Origin: Gammaproteobacteria bacterium
GTDB taxonomy: Bacteria > Pseudomonadota > Gammaproteobacteria > Steroidobacterales > Rariloculaceae
DNA length: 56,286 nucleotides
Reading direction: 5' to 3'
NCBI GenBank assembly: GCA_041623375.1
Contig: JBFJXA010000001.1
Coordinates: 1 to 56,286 of the forward strand
Made by a program: the position numbers and the translations under genes. Positions 1,282-7,738 of this stretch are shown one piece after another. The number at the start of each line of letters is the position of its first letter. Within the stretch, counting starts at the first letter, position 1. The notes beneath the pieces are model-generated. The model made no database searches and was not told the DNA's origin. It saw only the letters and a program-made list of their open reading frames with translations.

Positions 1282-1591
1282 TGGTGGGCCCGGTAGGACT
1301 CGAACCTACGACCAAGGGATTCACTCGGCCCCGCCGTTTCCGGCGGGAGTGGACTATCTCTTCACCCGCAACGGCACGCTGCTAGGGTGCGGGACGCTCG
1401 ATGCCTGTCATTAAGAGCGCTGAAGCTCTCAGGTAGTCTCTGCACCTTCCGGCGGTGTACCGCCGGCTTGGCTCAGGGTTGCCGGCTCGTGCGCTACGGT
1501 TCCCCTGAATTCATCCCGTCCACTTCGCGCCTTTCGACGCGAAGGCACCTTTCGATGAGTCCCCTGCTCTAACCAACTGAGCTACAGGCCC
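1282..1591 (-). tRNA. tRNA-Ile(CAU) (ileX-like, lysidine type) gene split by an intron. Exon 1 = 1591..1555, exon 2 = 1321..1282, CCA encoded
   Basis: Minus-strand exon 1 is GGGCCUGUAGCUCAGUUGGUUAGAGCAGGGGACUCAU. Exon 2 is AAUCCCUUGGUCGUAGGUUCGAGUCCUACCGGGCCCACCA. Joined, they give a 77-nt cloverleaf. Acceptor stem is GGGCCUG/CGGGCCC, D stem GCUC/GAGC and anticodon stem GGGGA/UCCCU. The anticodon loop is CUCAUAA and the T arm is GUAGG-UUCGAGU-CCUAC. The body resembles E. coli tRNA-Ile2 (..GAGCAGGCGACUCAUAAUCGCUUGGUC..) more than elongator tRNA-Met. Confidence 0.85.
1322..1554 (-). ncRNA. Group I self-splicing intron (Azoarcus tRNA-Ile / IC3-like) inserted between tRNA positions 36 and 37
   Basis: 233 nt on the minus strand with the following elements. 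It starts CGAAAG-GUG, and GUG can pair with the exon CAU to give the U.G splice-site pair (P1). P2 is CUUCGCGUC-GAAA-GGCGCGAAG. P4 candidates are UCAGGG/CCCUGA. P6 is CCGGCGG-UACA-CCGCCGG. The core string GAGCCAAGC...GGAAGGUGCAGAGACUA closely resembles the Azoarcus core as I recall it. P7 is GGUGC/GCACC and P9 is CCCGCCG-GAAA-CGGCGGG. The terminal G (omega-G) lies directly before exon 2. Confidence 0.82.
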
Positions 1592-1760
1592 TGACCGGCC
1601 ATATGGTAACACCAGGCCGAAGGGCTCGCGCTCGCCGATCGTGCCCGGCCTCGCTGAGGGACCAAAAAGCTGCAGTTCTATGGCCGGCGGTGCCCGGAAC
1701 TTGACGCAGGTCACACTGCCGGCCCATGCACCCTGAGAGAATATAAAATTACAAGTCGTT

Positions 1761-2765
1761 TTGTGGCCGACCCCCATGCTCGAGGCTCCACACCCTATCG
1801 GGGAAACCGTCCGTCTGTGCTCGCTGCAGAATCTCAAGGTGCTGGACACGCTGCCCGAGGAGCGTTTCGATCGCATCACGCGGCTCGTCGCGCGCGTCTT
1901 CGACGTGCCGATCGCACTGGTCAGCCTCGTCGACGTGGACCGGCAATGGTTCAAGTCCAGGCACGGCTTGGCTGCAGAGGAGACGCCCAGGGAGATCTCT
2001 TTTTGCGGTCACGCGATCCTGGAGGAACGGACTTTCGTAGTTGAGGATGCGGCCAAGGATGAGCGCTTCGCAGATAACCCGCTCGTAACCGGCGAGCCAA
2101 AGATCCGATTCTATGCGGGTCACCCGGTTCATTCGCCGCAAGGCGCGCGCATCGGGACGCTCTGTGTCATCGACCGTAGGCCCCGAACATTCTCGACGGA
2201 GGATGCCGCGAACCTGAAAGGCTTCGCGGACATGGTCGATCACGAGCTGTCGCTGCTTGCGCAGACGACGAGCGATGAGCTGACGCGTATCGCCAATCGA
2301 CGCGGCTTTGCGCAGATTGCGGGCCACATGCTCGCTCTCTGCCATCGTTACGCCAAGCCGGCGACGGTCGTCGGGATCGACCTGGACAAATTCAAGCTCG
2401 TGAACGACACCTACGGACACGAGGCCGGTGATAAAGTCCTCGAGCGGTTCGCGGCGCTGCTCGTGAAAACCTTCCGCGATTCAGATGTCGTCGCGCGCTT
2501 CGGCGGCGACGAGTTTGGAGTCCTGATCAGCTACGCGGTCGCGAGCGAGGTTCGTGCGCGGCTCGATCAGCTGGCGGAAGCCTTCTCCTCCTCGGCGCTG
2601 AAACGGGAGTTCCCGATGCTGTCGTGGAGTGCTGGCCTGGCGGAGTACGATCCCGCGAAGCCGCCCGACCTCGAAGCCCTGCTCGGCCTAGCGGACGCGC
2701 AGATGTACGAGATCAAGCAGGCGCAAACGGCCGATATCGCTCCGCGCGCACAGTCGGGCAGCTAG
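1761..2765 (+). CDS. GAF domain-containing diguanylate cyclase (GGDEF)
   Basis: The N-terminal GAF signature is LDTLPEERFDRITRLVARVFDVPIALVSLVD..RQWFKS..G. The C-terminal GGDEF domain has LTRIANRRGF, DLDKFKLVNDTYGHEAGD and an intact RFGGDEFGVL active site. The start is either TTG 1761 or ATG 1776. Confidence 0.9.
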   Translation: MWPTPMLEAPHPIGETVRLCSLQNLKVLDTLPEERFDRITRLVARVFDVPIALVSLVDVDRQWFKSRHGLAAEETPREISFCGHAILEERTFVVEDAAKDERFADNPLVTGEPKIRFYAGHPVHSPQGARIGTLCVIDRRPRTFSTEDAANLKGFADMVDHELSLLAQTTSDELTRIANRRGFAQIAGHMLALCHRYAKPATVVGIDLDKFKLVNDTYGHEAGDKVLERFAALLVKTFRDSDVVARFGGDEFGVLISYAVASEVRARLDQLAEAFSSSALKREFPMLSWSAGLAEYDPAKPPDLEALLGLADAQMYEIKQAQTADIAPRAQSGS

Positions 2766-2911: not shown

Positions 2912-3859
2912 ATGAAACGCGCAACACTGATCACCTTGCTCACGCTGACTGGCGTACTCTCCACGGCCAACGCTCAGTCTTGGCGGCCGCCGGCTGAGGC
3001 AGACCGCTGCCCGTCCAAGTGGGGCGCCGGTGATGAGCGCGGCTCGGCGAATCACATGGGCACGGCCAGCGTGCTGCGGGCCGCTCGACTCATTCGCGAG
3101 GGTGAGGTCGTCGAGCTCGGCAACGAGCTGCACAGCGGCATACCGCTCGGTTCGCGCCACTTCGATATGTTCGTCAAGCCGACCGCGATGAACCCGGCCA
3201 GCAACCGCAGAGGGTCCAATGAGGAGCTCGTCGTCACGGAGCTCGGCCAGGTTGGCACACAGCTCGACGGCTTCGCCCATCAGTCGATCGGCGATACGTT
3301 CTACAACTGCTTTCGCGTCTCGGAGATTCTGACGCGCGATGGTTTCACGCGGCTCGGAATCGAGAACGTCGGCATGCTCATGACGCGCGGCGTGCTGCTC
3401 GACATCGCCGGCCTCAAGGGCGTTCAGATTCTCGACGCAGACTACGCGATCACGGTCGAGGATCTCGAGCAGGCGCTGCAGCGCGCCGACCTGACGCTCG
3501 AGCCCGGCGATGCCGTGATCGTCAACACCGGCTGGGGACGGCTATGGACGCGCGACGTCGAGCGTTTTCTCGGCCCGGCGCCGGGTTTGAGCGTGGCCGC
3601 GGCCGAATGGCTCGCGGAACACGATCCGATGATCGTCGGGGCCGACAACCAGCCCGTGGAGATTCAGCCGCATCCGGACCCTACCATCTCTCTGCCCGTG
3701 CATCAGATCATGCTCGCCGTCAACGGGATACATATATTGGAGCGGCTGCGACTGGAGGAGCTCGTCGAGCGCGAAGTCTACGAGTTCGCGTTCGTCATGC
3801 AGCCGTTACCGATTCGCGGCGCGACGGGATCGACTGTCGCACCGGCCGCGATCTACTGA
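2912..3859 (+). CDS. Secreted cyclase-family protein (PF04199-like, kynurenine formamidase/arylformamidase superfamily)
   Basis: It has a signal peptide, MKRATLITLLTLTGVLSTANA-QS. The body shows the cyclase-family pattern (..GDERGSANH.., GTQLDGFAHQ, VIVNTGWG, PVHQIML..GI.ILE.L.L). GGGAGG lies 11 nt upstream of the ATG. Confidence 0.7.
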   Translation: MKRATLITLLTLTGVLSTANAQSWRPPAEADRCPSKWGAGDERGSANHMGTASVLRAARLIREGEVVELGNELHSGIPLGSRHFDMFVKPTAMNPASNRRGSNEELVVTELGQVGTQLDGFAHQSIGDTFYNCFRVSEILTRDGFTRLGIENVGMLMTRGVLLDIAGLKGVQILDADYAITVEDLEQALQRADLTLEPGDAVIVNTGWGRLWTRDVERFLGPAPGLSVAAAEWLAEHDPMIVGADNQPVEIQPHPDPTISLPVHQIMLAVNGIHILERLRLEELVEREVYEFAFVMQPLPIRGATGSTVAPAAIY

Positions 3860-3943: not shown

Positions 3944-5764
3944 TCAGTCTTCGAGCAGGAAGCTGCGCAGCTGATCCGAGCGTGAGGGATGGCGCAGCTT
4001 GCGCAGCGCTTTCGCCTCGATCTGGCGAATGCGCTCGCGTGTGACGTCAAACTGCTTGCCGACCTCCTCGAGTGTGTGATCGGTGTTCATGTCGATACCG
4101 AAACGCATGCGCAGCACTTTAGCCTCGCGCGGTGTCAGGCCGGCCAGGACGGCGTGAGTCGTTTCCTTGAGACCTTCCGACGTCGCTGAATCGACGGGCG
4201 AGGAGATCTCCGCGTCCTCGATGAAATCGCCGAGATGTGAATCCTCGTCGTCGCCGATCGGTGTCTCCATCGAGATCGGCTCCTTGGCGATCTTCAGCAC
4301 CTTGCGGACCTTGTCCTCGGGCATGTCCATGCGCTCGGCGAGCTCGTCCGGCGTCGGCTCGCGACCCATCTCCTGGAGCATCTGCCGCGAGATGCGGTTG
4401 AGCTTGTTGATGGTCTCGATCATGTGCACGGGAATGCGAATCGTGCGTGCCTGATCGGCGATGGACCGCGTGATGGCCTGGCGAATCCACCAGGTCGCAT
4501 ACGTCGAGAATTTGTAGCCTCGGCGATACTCGAATTTGTCGACGGCCTTCATGAGGCCGATGTTGCCTTCCTGAATCAGATCGAGGAACTGCAAGCCGCG
4601 GTTCGTATATTTCTTCGCGATCGAGATGACCAGGCGCAAATTGGCTTCGACCATCTCCTTTTTCGCGCGTCGCGCTTGAGCCTCGCCCATGGAAATCTCG
4701 CGATTGATGTCCTTGATCTCACCGATTTGCAGGCATGTCAGGGACTCGAGCTTTTGCAGGCGCTTTTGTGCTCTGAGAATATCGTCCTTGAGCCTGGCGA
4801 GCTGCGAGGAGTGCTTGCGCTTGGCGCGAATGTGCTTGTCGACCCACTTGAGATTTGTTTCGTTCTTCGGAAAGCTCGCAATGAAGTCCTTGCGCGGCAT
4901 TTTCGCGTCACGCACGCACAGCGCCATGACTTGACGCTCGAGGCTGCGGATGCCGTTCACGGTATCGCGCAACGAGGCGACCATGACCTCGAACAGCTTC
5001 GGCGCGAGCTTGATTTCCATGAACTCGGCAGTGAGGTTGCGCAACGTTTTTTGCGTAGAGGCGTGCTTGATGCCGTGCTTGAGCAGCATGTCGACGTAGC
5101 GCTTGTGCAGGCGGCGCACCTTCTTCATGCGCTTGGCAACTTCTGCCGGGTCCGGGCCCGTGTCGGGGGTCTCGTCGGAGTCGTCATCGGATTTCGCGTT
5201 CGGGTCGGCGATCTCGGCATTCGGATCGATGAAGCCGACGATGACGTCTTGCAGGCGCATCTCTTCGGACATGACGTGGTCGTAGTTCGTCAGCAAGAGG
5301 TCGATGGCAGGCGGGAACTGCGCCAGCGCTGCACGGACCTGGTCGAGTCCCTCCTCGATGCGCTTGGCAATGCGGATCTCGCCTTCGCGTGTCAGCAGCT
5401 CCACCGTGCCCATCTCGCGCATGTACATGCGCACGGGGTCCGTCGTGCGGCCGAACTCGCTGTCGACGGTCGCCAGCGCCGCGGCCGCTTCCTCGGTGTC
5501 ATCGTCGCTGGATACTGCGGAATCCGACAGCACGACAGACTCGGCGTCGGAGGCCTTCTCGTAAACCGTGATCCCCATATCGTTGATCATGTTGACGATA
5601 TCCTCGATCTGTTCCGGATCGACGATCTCGCTCGGCAGATGATCGTTGACCTCGCCGTAGGTCAGATAGCCCTGCTCCTTGCCTTTGGCAATGAGCAGCT
5701 TGAGCTGCGATTGGCGCTCGTCTTCGGCGGGGGGTTGTGCTTGTGCAGTCGTCGCTTTTTCCAT
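3944..5764 (-). CDS. rpoD: RNA polymerase sigma factor RpoD (sigma-70)
   Basis: 606 aa with an acidic region 1. It contains the exact conserved blocks [54 protein letters not shown] and [33 protein letters not shown]. Confidence 0.97.
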
Positions 5765-5891: not shown

Positions 5892-7640
5892 TCAGGCCTC
5901 CGAGGGGCCGGCCCGGGCGCTGGCGGCCTGCAGCTCGCGGATTTCGGCCTTTTCTTCATCGCTGAGGCTGCCTCCCCGCGACAGGAGCGCGCTCAAGCGC
6001 TCGCGACGAAAAGCCGCGACGATGCGCTCGGCGCAGTCCCGCAGCACCTCTGCGGCAACCGCCTCGTCATCGAGCGGGGCGGCCGCTGCGAGCTGCCCGA
6101 GGTGGCGTCCTTCGGCATCGTGGCGAAAACGCTCGATCAGCCCCGCTGTATTAATGTTGGGCTGTGCGGCCGTGACTTCAAGTACCTGACACAGCAGCGC
6201 AATGCCGGGCTGCTCGACGTGCTCGAGGCCATCGACCGGACCGATCCGCGCCGCGGCTTCGGGGTGGTGTACGGCAAGCGTCAGGGCCTTGCGAACGAGG
6301 TTCGAGCGCAACGCCCGGGTCGGCGTTCGCTCGCGTACGGGTGGAGCGGGGCTCGGCGCGGGCGTCGAGAGCAGCATACCGAGACGCTCGGCGGACGTGC
6401 CGAGCCGCTCGGCGAGCTGCTGCAGTAGCCGGTCGCGATAAATCCCGTCGGGAAGCCTGGCGAGCAACGGCTCGACGAGCGCGACGAGTCGCGATTGCCC
6501 GTCGGTGCTGGAAAGATCGACCTGACTGCTAAGCGCCTCGATCAGGAAGGTCGACAGGGGTAACGCTGCGTCGATGAGCGACTCGAACGGTGCCTTGCCC
6601 TGCTCGCGAACCAGCGAGTCGGGGTCGTGGCCTTCGGGTAACAGCAGAAAACGGATCTCGACCGTGCCGCCGGCCATCGGCAGGGCCGTCTCCAGTGCCC
6701 GCCACGCCGCGGCGCGGCCGGCGCGATCGCCGTCGAAGCAGAACACGACGCGATCCGTGAGACGCGTCAGCCGGCGGATGTGCTCCGCCGTCGTTGCAGT
6801 GCCGAGCGTGGCAACGACGGGCTCGATGCCGTGTTGGGCGAGACTCGCGACGTCGAGATAACCCTCGACGACGAGTATCTGCTCGGGGCGGCCCGGCACC
6901 TGACGCGCTTCGTACAGCCCGTAGAGCGCCCGACCCTTGTGAAAGACGGGCGTCTCCGGGGAGTTCAAATACTTGGGCTCGCCGCTGCCGAGCACACGTC
7001 CGCCGAATCCGATCACGCGACCGCGTGGATCACGGATCGGGAACATGATGCGGTCGCGGAAGCGGTCGTATTGGCGGCCCTGCTCGTTCTTGATGATGAG
7101 CCCGGCGTCTCTGAGTCGTTCGATGCGCGCCGGGCTGGAGCCGAGCGCCTCGAGGACGCTGTCCCAGGCGTCCGGGGCGTAGCCCATGCCGAAACGGGCC
7201 GCCGTCTGACCGTCGATGCCACGCCCTTTGAGATAGTCGATTGCCGTCTGGCTATCGCGCAGGGCCTGGCGGTAAAGCGCATCGGCGCGACCGAGCAGAT
7301 CGTACAAGTCGTGCGTCGGTGCGCGTTCTTCTGACGGTGCCGTTCTCGGCACCTCGACGCTGCAGATGTCTGCGAGCGCGTCCACGGCGTCGAGAAACTC
7401 GAGGTTGTCGTACTGCATGAGAAATCCGAGCGCGGTGCCATGGGCGCCGCAGCCGAAGCAGTGGTAAAAACCCTTCGTCGGACTGACCGTGAACGAGGGC
7501 GTTTTCTCGGCGTGGAACGGACAGCAGGCTTTGTACTCGCGCCCGGCCTTCGTGAGCGACACGCGATTGCCGATAATCTCGACGATGTCCGCTCGCGCGA
7601 TGAGATCGTCGATGAAGCTTTGCGGTATCCGCTGGCTCAT
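5892..7640 (-). CDS. dnaG: DNA primase
   Basis: Zinc-ribbon motif CCPFHAEKTPSFTVSPTKGFYHCFGCGAHG, a TOPRIM region (EGYLDV..L.Q.G, FDGDRAGR) and a DnaB-binding C-terminus. I place the start at the internal ATG (7640, MSQRIPQSFIDDL...) rather than at the ORF-track start 7706. Confidence 0.93.
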   Translation of the reverse strand: MSQRIPQSFIDDLIARADIVEIIGNRVSLTKAGREYKACCPFHAEKTPSFTVSPTKGFYHCFGCGAHGTALGFLMQYDNLEFLDAVDALADICSVEVPRTAPSEERAPTHDLYDLLGRADALYRQALRDSQTAIDYLKGRGIDGQTAARFGMGYAPDAWDSVLEALGSSPARIERLRDAGLIIKNEQGRQYDRFRDRIMFPIRDPRGRVIGFGGRVLGSGEPKYLNSPETPVFHKGRALYGLYEARQVPGRPEQILVVEGYLDVASLAQHGIEPVVATLGTATTAEHIRRLTRLTDRVVFCFDGDRAGRAAAWRALETALPMAGGTVEIRFLLLPEGHDPDSLVREQGKAPFESLIDAALPLSTFLIEALSSQVDLSSTDGQSRLVALVEPLLARLPDGIYRDRLLQQLAERLGTSAERLGMLLSTPAPSPAPPVRERTPTRALRSNLVRKALTLAVHHPEAAARIGPVDGLEHVEQPGIALLCQVLEVTAAQPNINTAGLIERFRHDAEGRHLGQLAAAAPLDDEAVAAEVLRDCAERIVAAFRRERLSALLSRGGSLSDEEKAEIRELQAASARAGPSEA

Positions 7641-7738
7641 TGGAGAGACTCGCGCGCCCACGGCGCTCTCGGTCAGATTAGGGCGGCCTCTAGCATAGCA
7701 GCGCAACCCGTGCAGGCCGCGCGAGGCGCGCTCCGCGC

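Follow-up and report, generated by a model that had tools for sequence, protein, structure and literature searches.

Here we describe a split transfer RNA (tRNA) gene in a 56,286-nucleotide (nt) stretch of a gammaproteobacterial genome assembly (GCA_041623375.1, contig JBFJXA010000001.1, positions 1 to 56,286), referred to below as the window. The gene occupies positions 1282-1591 of the minus strand and consists of a 37-nt exon, a 233-nt insert and a 40-nt exon. Joining the exons (1591-1555 and 1321-1282) yields a canonical 77-nt tRNA(CAU), recognized by ARAGORN in the spliced sequence as a clean cloverleaf; in the unspliced 56-kb window the same program reports no tRNA in its default mode, and it detects the unspliced gene only when introns are allowed. 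The insert matches the Rfam family RF00028 (Intron_gpI) at 1567-1330(-), across model positions 1-253 of 253, scoring 73.1 bits where the gathering score is 50 (E=1.1e-16); no other Rfam family reaches that level in the 56 kb. A first-pass annotation, made from the letters of the window and a list of its open reading frames (ORFs), had proposed that a group I intron splits a tRNA-Ile(CAU) gene here, directly behind the anticodon. The proposal is borne out by the Rfam match, the cloverleaf, and the likeness to ileX, the gene order and the covariation described below. Its exon and intron coordinates proved exact, with U1555, the -1 uridine, as the last base of the 5' exon.

In comparison with Escherichia coli K-12, the spliced tRNA shows 83% identity to ileX (tRNA-Ile2, CAU), as against 71% to metT/metU (elongator Met) and 62% to metZ (initiator Met), and its best match in a set of 5,426 E. 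coli genomes was in every case annotated as tRNA-Ile, in agreement with the lysidine-type tRNA-Ile2 body that had been recognized at the outset. Three pairs found in E. coli ileX but lacking in metT, namely C4-G69, C5-G68 and G27.U43, recur in the window tRNA; they are kept in every family member, and are reportedly determinants for TilS. The ileX product, tRNA-Ile2 (CAU), decodes AUA once C34 has been converted to lysidine. Gene order points the same way. The E. coli K-12 arrangement is rpsU-dnaG-rpoD-mug-ileX, and the dnaG-rpoD...tRNA order in the window matches that of ileX there. Searches with tblastn showed that rpoD adjoins an intron-bearing tRNA(CAU) gene in 12 related loci, and in L029 the tRNA directly follows rpoD. 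Because the tRNA body is ileX-like, the E. coli matches are tRNA-Ile genes and synteny with rpoD is kept, the locus can be regarded as a syntenic ileX orthologue and not as a stray fragment. With a probability of about 0.88, we consider window 1282-1591(-) to be the chromosomal ileX orthologue, with a 233-nt group I intron devoid of ORFs separating nucleotides 36 and 37.

Genes of this kind are easily overlooked or misread in routine annotation. A near-identical locus (L001) is present in an independent assembly, whose public annotation places no gene in the stretch. Gene callers had been expected to report nothing other than spurious ORFs; the two in question, 1387-1572(+) and 1511-1954(-), are indeed present in a mechanical ORF list, but the public calls on L001 do not bear the expectation out. 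When introns are allowed, ARAGORN sets the intron 2 nt too early in the window gene and in L006, L029, L067, L085, L101, L118 and others, with the result that tRNA-Ile2 genes are labelled as tRNA-Gln(CUG), Arg(CCG) or Ser(CGA). The error is systematic and misleads annotation throughout the class of split tRNA-Ile2 genes. Since default finders miss the gene and the intron mode mislabels it, genomes of this lineage seem either to be without an AUA decoder or to possess a spurious isoacceptor.

Fold and covariation of the intron

A structure composed of P1, P2, P3, P4, P5, P6, P6a, the P7 pseudoknot, an extra hairpin, P8, P9.0 and P9 (Table 1) was placed on an alignment of 16 sequences, namely the window and 15 window-like loci. 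In this structure 97.5% of cells form standard pairs, whereas sliding the 3' partners by 1-3 columns as a control lowers pairing to 34-44%. Compensatory changes were seen in 25 of the 69 pairs, and none of 500 shuffles reached any of the observed measures. Most of the covariation falls in P2 (9/9 pairs), P6a (4/7), P9 (6/7) and P9.0 (2/3). P3, P4 and P7 are essentially invariant across the 16 introns, and no variation was seen in the -1 uridine, the terminal guanosine (omega-G), P7 or the J-regions.

Table 1. Features of the split tRNA gene, its intron and the neighbouring genes (positions in the window)
Feature	Position	Strand	Description
tRNA-Ile2 5' exon	1555..1591	(-)	37 nt; acceptor 5' strand, D arm, anticodon stem 5' strand, loop to CAU
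Group I intron	1322..1554	(-)	233 nt, without ORF; Rfam RF00028 and covariation
tRNA-Ile2 3' exon	1282..1321	(-)	40 nt; A37 A38, anticodon stem 3' strand, variable loop, T arm, acceptor 3' strand, encoded CCA
P1	1546..1557	(-)	exon C-A-U and intron C1 with guide GGUG; GAAA loop
P2	1523..1544	(-)	9 bp, GAAA tetraloop
P3 5' strand	1512..1518	(-)	CGGGAUG; 7 bp with 1390-1396, 100% paired in the 16 introns; agrees with Rfam alignment
P4-P5-P6 domain	1444..1508	(-)	covariation alignment
P4	1508-1503/1478-1473	(-)	
P5	1499-1497/1484-1482	(-)	
P6	1472-1470/1446-1444	(-)	
P6a	1466-1460/1455-1449	(-)	UACA loop
P7 5' strand	1434..1440	(-)	G-(A)-GACUA; within conserved core GAAGGUGCAGAGACUA
J7/3 hairpin ('P7.1-like')	1404..1433	(-)	30 nt; CCUG-AGAGC-UUCAGC-GCUCU-UAAUGA-CAGG
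J7/3 hairpin, basal helix	1433-1430/1407-1404	(-)	CCUG/CAGG
J7/3 hairpin, upper helix	1429-1425/1418-1414	(-)	AGAGC/GCUCU, loop UUCAGC
J7/3 hairpin, 6-nt bulge	1413-1408	(-)	UAAUGA, 3' side
P3 3' strand	1390..1396	(-)	CGUCCCG; closes P3/P7 pseudoknot
P8	1363..1389	(-)	CACCC/GGGUG base, UA bulge, GCAGC/GUUGC distal
P7 3' strand	1351..1356	(-)	UAGUCC; preceded by J8/7 AAGAGA; Rfam and family pairing
P9.0	1350-1348/1325-1323	(-)	ACU/AGU; encloses P9
P9	1347-1330	(-)	7 bp, GAAA loop
GAF-GGDEF diguanylate cyclase gene	1761-2765	(+)	between rpoD and ileX
Putative cyclase gene (PF04199)	2912-3859	(+)	between rpoD and ileX
rpoD	3944-5764	(-)	upstream of tRNA, same strand; Pfam
dnaG	5892-7706	(-)	upstream of tRNA, same strand; Pfam

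Several elements that the first-pass annotation had picked out by eye reappear in the aligned structure: the GUG guide with a U.G pair at the splice site (P1 is CAUC/GGUG, the wobble being U1555.G1548, a U-1/G pair kept in the family), the GAAA-capped P2 and P9, and the terminal G abutting the second exon, which is G1322 in the window and G in all 16 relatives. The helix CCGGCGG-UACA-CCGCCGG was also correctly seen as a helix, as its covarying pairs attest, but it corresponds to P6a and not to P6, the name that it had been given. The pairing GGUGC/GCACC, taken at that stage for P7, is ruled out by covariation: the A of GCACC is replaced by C, U or G in relatives with GGUGC left unchanged, and this A covaries in P8. 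The P7 that emerges from the alignment is G-(A)-GACUA/UAGUC-C, and its 5' strand presumably holds the guanosine-binding G-C pair. The base helix of P8 is 98.8% paired, with two compensatory pairs, and P9.0 sets omega-G 1322 next to P7. A P9.0 of 4 bp (ACUC/GAGU) was also considered; it overlaps P9 and was cut to the 3 bp backed by the family. The insert is thus a member of group I by its covariance-model match, its P1 with the U.G wobble, its omega-G and a covarying P3-P9 core with the P3/P7 pseudoknot.

The most distinctive part of the structure is the hairpin in the segment joining P7 to the 3' strand of P3 (J7/3). In 15 ungapped examples, which include a Clostridium metagenome-assembled genome (MAG), a contig binned as Methanosarcinaceae and phage contigs, 100% of the cells of the hairpin are paired and five of its nine pairs show compensatory changes. 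Its basal helix covaries, being CCUG/CAGG in most examples and CUGG/CCAG in two, and the bulge reads U-R-A-U-N-A throughout; in larger members, further helices are inserted into the terminal loop. No such hairpin is present in the Azoarcus-like Ile introns, nor in nearly all of the Leu-UAA and Arg-CCU IC3 tRNA introns. This one hairpin explains the excess of about 30 nt over the 205-nt Azoarcus intron; the extra length had been noticed before, but it was attributed to additional helices in the P8/P9 region and not to a single hairpin between P7 and P3'. By analogy with the A-rich bulges and P7.1/P7.2 of other subgroups, the U-R-A-U-N-A bulge is most likely engaged in a tertiary contact, which would stabilise the core.

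Relatives in bacteria and phages

When GAAGGTGYAGAGACTA, a string from the core, was searched for in 185,579 species genomes, at least 120 loci were recovered. Among the matches listed, most lie inside tRNA genes (Leu-UAA, Arg-CCU, Ile-CAU, Asn, Thr and others), and at least 22 are tRNA(CAU) genes whose intron occupies the site seen in the window, their splice sites having been re-derived by the rule of a -1 uridine and an omega-G. A total of 5,292 intron-split tRNA genes mapped in ~80,000 bacterial genomes is given in a preprint (Williams 2020, bioRxiv 10.1101/2020.01.27.920355), so that the earlier description of such introns as rare was, in view of both figures, overstated.

Three types could be told apart by what follows P7. 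In Azoarcus-like introns (L005 and L112, Betaproteobacteria), P3' comes straight after P7 (GAGACUA). Window-like introns, at least 15 loci in Gammaproteobacteria (L082 and L118 also match), have the conserved hairpin between GAGACUA and P3', their hosts including, among the matches listed, Steroidobacteraceae, Woeseiaceae, Rhodanobacteraceae, Lysobacter daejeonensis and others. A third type, with a different insert after P7, is present in Burkholderiales and Runella (L038, L047, L051, L122). Again among the matches listed, identity of the window intron is 73-87% with the window-like group and 53-57% with the Azoarcus-like introns. Judged by its core and by these identities, it can be assigned an IC3-type core and a place in a sub-lineage common in Gammaproteobacteria.

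Relatives were also found in viral genomes. A scan of IMG/VR with the core and the start of the hairpin identified 13 contigs. Two of them (L126, L137) contain a phage tRNA cluster, Arg(UCU)-Leu(UAA)-tRNA(CAU), the last gene of which is split (L126 1078-1858(-), L137 1484-2264(-)). This phage tRNA(CAU) is 82% identical to the window tRNA (63/77 positions), and its 704-nt intron lies at the same site, belongs to the same subclass, has the same J7/3 hairpin and encodes a 179-aa HNH_3 endonuclease (L126 1266-1805; PF13392, E=1.7e-10). Other IMG/VR introns lie in a phage tRNA-Leu(UAA) gene or in non-tRNA contexts. The endonuclease-bearing phage relatives suggest a route of horizontal spread; the window intron is not itself mobile, as it lacks an ORF. 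Furthermore, viral contigs L128 and L129 (match 94-112) and L133 (match 33-51) begin inside a tRNA-Ile2 intron of Xanthomonadales type, and these starts may mark prophage boundaries or integration at ileX.

Inserts between P7 and P3' take other forms elsewhere. In L038, L047, L051, L122, L046, L063, L064 and L117 the J7/3 insert is a helix enclosing (U)GAG...C-R-A-U-A-A, with Burkholderiales and Runella tRNA-Ile2, Myxococcota tRNA-Leu and others as hosts, and its R-A-U-N-A resembles the bulge of the window hairpin. Patescibacteria and Saccharibacteria (L052, L089, L097, L104, L107, L120, L031) have the same P7 core followed by two hairpins before P3'; one example reads UCCC-GAAA-GGGA GUA plus a second stem, then AAGCGCC, and resembles the IA-type P7.1/P7.2. 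With ARAGORN, the hosts of L052, L089, L097, L104 and L107 were identified as Thr, Asn, Phe and Asp tRNAs, and none was found for L120 and L031. The same bacterial-type core is present on archaeal-binned contigs (L014 and L049, Pacearchaeota; L073, a Methanosarcinaceae MAG), with the window-type hairpin in L073; similar Pacearchaeota matches are suspected of being mis-binned in the preprint mentioned above (Williams 2020, bioRxiv 10.1101/2020.01.27.920355). Finally, core copies occur in pairs in L018, at 5651(+) and 6134(-) on opposite strands, one of them within tRNA-Leu(UAA), and in L056 (a Lachnospiraceae MAG), at 4139(+) and 4450(+), 311 nt apart. Such pairs, less than about 500 nt apart, could be adjacent or tandem introns.

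Splicing, alternative readings and the decoding of AUA

The window intron has every sequence and structure element that the standard two-step group I pathway calls for, each of them conserved, and the joined exons give the anticodon loop CUCAUAA. In the precursor, the exon CAU would pair with the guide GGUG to form P1 with its U.G wobble, and an exogenous guanosine bound in P7 would attack after U1555. P9.0 would then bring the terminal G1322 into the guanosine site, and the freed 5' exon would attack after G1322, joining CAU to AA and restoring the loop, after which RNase P, 3' trimming and TilS would act on the tRNA in the standard steps. From this anatomy and the established group I pathway we infer that the RNA would self-splice and that its product would be processed and lysidinylated; by all comparative criteria, the split ileX appears functional.

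Several points weigh against a working split ileX at this locus. Splicing activity is predicted from conservation. A promoter and terminator consensus scan of 1100-1900 found no sigma-70-like promoter for the tRNA gene, and the sole terminator-like site in that interval is the antisense of P9, with none for the tRNA gene. Within the 56-kb window there is neither a second, intron-less tRNA(CAU) gene nor a PP-loop SGGxDS motif of the kind expected for tilS. The role of the hairpin is a conjecture: by sequence reasoning against consensus motifs, its bulge fits neither an 11-nt GAAA receptor, the putative receptor strand being locked in the covarying CCUG/CAGG (CUGG/CCAG) helix, nor a kink-turn, as tandem G.A pairs are absent.

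The locus might on these grounds be taken for a decaying pseudogene with an inactive intron, AUA being read by an intact tRNA-Ile2 encoded elsewhere, an idea that draws on the predicted nature of splicing, the outcome of the promoter scan and the 56-kb extent of the view. Decay is very hard to reconcile with a catalytic core in which every element is intact and, like the nucleotides at the two splice sites, invariant across 16 relatives from different families, with helices kept by compensatory changes, with exons that form a flawless cloverleaf and with an ileX position beside rpoD conserved in many genera; the intact core, the cloverleaf and the kept position argue for purifying selection on a working gene, and we consider a pseudogene very improbable. 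Just as improbable is an elongator tRNA-Met with an unmodified CAU. The anticodon alone is ambiguous and ARAGORN labels the gene tRNA-Met, yet the overall identity favours ileX over metT/metU, the top E. coli matches are annotated as tRNA-Ile, the anticodon stem (G27.U43 included) and, in the acceptor, C4-G69 and C5-G68 agree with ileX and not with metT, and the gene lies downstream of rpoD as ileX does. Moreover, genes of this class are catalogued as Ile2 by the tRNAscan-SE isotype models (Williams 2020).

A different question is how the intron came to lie in ileX. It could have been acquired recently from a relative carried by a phage, through homing or reverse splicing, as a neutral and transient passenger, and the viral contigs lend this some colour, since they contain introns of the same subclass with the J7/3 hairpin, one phage copy being at the same tRNA(CAU) site and equipped with an HNH endonuclease ORF. 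The 233-nt window intron has no endonuclease ORF, however, and its closest relatives among the matches listed (those at 73-87%) reside in the syntenic ileX of other Gammaproteobacteria, which fits long residence. A recent arrival is therefore quite unlikely, and a mixed vertical and horizontal inheritance of the intron is possible.

Accepting the gene as a split ileX orthologue, we turn to its surroundings and to the codon that it would serve. Two genes on the opposite strand, one for a GAF-GGDEF diguanylate cyclase and one for a putative cyclase, separate it from rpoD, and an AT-rich stretch, not established as a promoter, lies at about 1735-1760 between the tRNA gene and the divergent GGDEF gene. 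The RpoD protein of the window is nearest to those of Woeseiaceae and Azotimanducaceae-type Gammaproteobacteria (76-83%). In five neighbouring genes AUA accounts for 5 of 111 Ile codons, two of these in dnaG. Should no other ileX copy exist, ribozyme activity would be required for AUA to be translated, a dependence already recognised for Azoarcus and for the class designated Ile2.5Ug. A more remote possibility is that, through the dependence of splicing on guanosine nucleotides, the reading of AUA might be tied to growth state, an idea prompted by the position of the gene beside rpoD and by the need for its product in AUA decoding.

Comparison with known introns

The split ileX arrangement is genuine, and bacterial examples of it have been well described before. 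Four classical split types, all of them IC3 in GISSD, are listed in the preprint, among them Ile2.5Ug, which is catalogued as Ile2 by the tRNAscan-SE isotype models (Williams 2020). The window gene fits this class exactly: a tRNA-Ile2 with an intron after anticodon-loop position 5, a -1 uridine and an omega-G. Sub-lineages and the J7/3 hairpin are not described in the available text of the preprint (Williams 2020). We found no description of a J7/3 hairpin in IC3-type tRNA introns in a literature search of incomplete coverage, which makes this weak evidence, and with the same incomplete coverage nothing specific was found on such introns in Gammaproteobacteria or on P7.1 together with IC3; because of that coverage, novelty is not claimed for the hairpin.

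The cyanobacterial and proteobacterial IC3 introns of tRNA-Leu(UAA) and tRNA-Arg(CCU) share the core motif and a site in the anticodon loop with the window intron, but differ in host tRNA and insertion position, and in nearly all of them P3' (GACGG...) comes straight after P7, without the J7/3 hairpin. In IA introns (phage T4 td, Twort), P7.1/P7.2 follow the P7 5' strand and precede the P3 3' strand, the same topological place as the window hairpin, and the two are likened by position only: the window has a single hairpin, an IC3-type core and the specific U-R-A-U-N-A bulge. P7.1/P7.2 are listed among the class-defining peripheral elements (PMC3984707).

The closest point of reference is the Azoarcus pre-tRNA-Ile intron, a structural model system of 205 nt with a 40-nt 3' exon and efficient self-splicing in vitro (PMC13168695); likeness to it was read from that source and from the Azoarcus-like introns L005 and L112. 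Common to both are a tRNA-Ile2 host, insertion after nucleotide 36, the CAU/GUG P1 with its U.G pair, the 40-nt 3' exon, and GAAA-capped P2 and P9. The J6/7-P7 core of the Azoarcus-like introns, GAAGGUG[C/U]AGAGACUA, is near-identical, as is GAGCCAAGC at P4'/P6, and the window string GAGCCAAGC...GAAGGUGCAGAGACUA is one base off L005 and L112, much as the first-pass annotation had stated for the Azoarcus ribozyme. Its label of Azoarcus-type therefore stands for host gene, insertion site, guide and J6/7-P7 core. It does not extend to a close sequence relationship, overall identity being 53-57%, or to the minimal architecture of about 205 nt without a helix between P7 and P3', since the window intron has 233 nt and the hairpin. 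Further differences are seen in P3' (AGCGUCCCG in the window, GACGGCACC in the Azoarcus-like introns), in the P9.0/P9 region (ACU-P9-AGU-G as against AGGGAG-P9-ACAAACC-G) and in P5, which is shorter in the window intron.

Canonical 11-nt GAAA receptors (CCUAAG/UAUGG) are found in P5 and P8 of Azoarcus. They are not present in the window intron, whose P5 and P8 carry UA-bulge variants instead. One may speculate that the hairpin and its U-R-A-U-N-A bulge mark an undescribed subclass with an IC3 core, common to gammaproteobacterial ileX and to phage introns, part of them mobile and equipped with an endonuclease, in which a tertiary contact of the A-rich bulge would replace the 11-nt tetraloop-receptor contacts of Azoarcus, although we regard this as rather doubtful. 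What is modestly new is a gammaproteobacterial sub-lineage whose core, otherwise Azoarcus-like, bears an additional conserved hairpin, and this sub-lineage lends itself naturally to comparison with the Azoarcus ribozyme, itself heavily studied.

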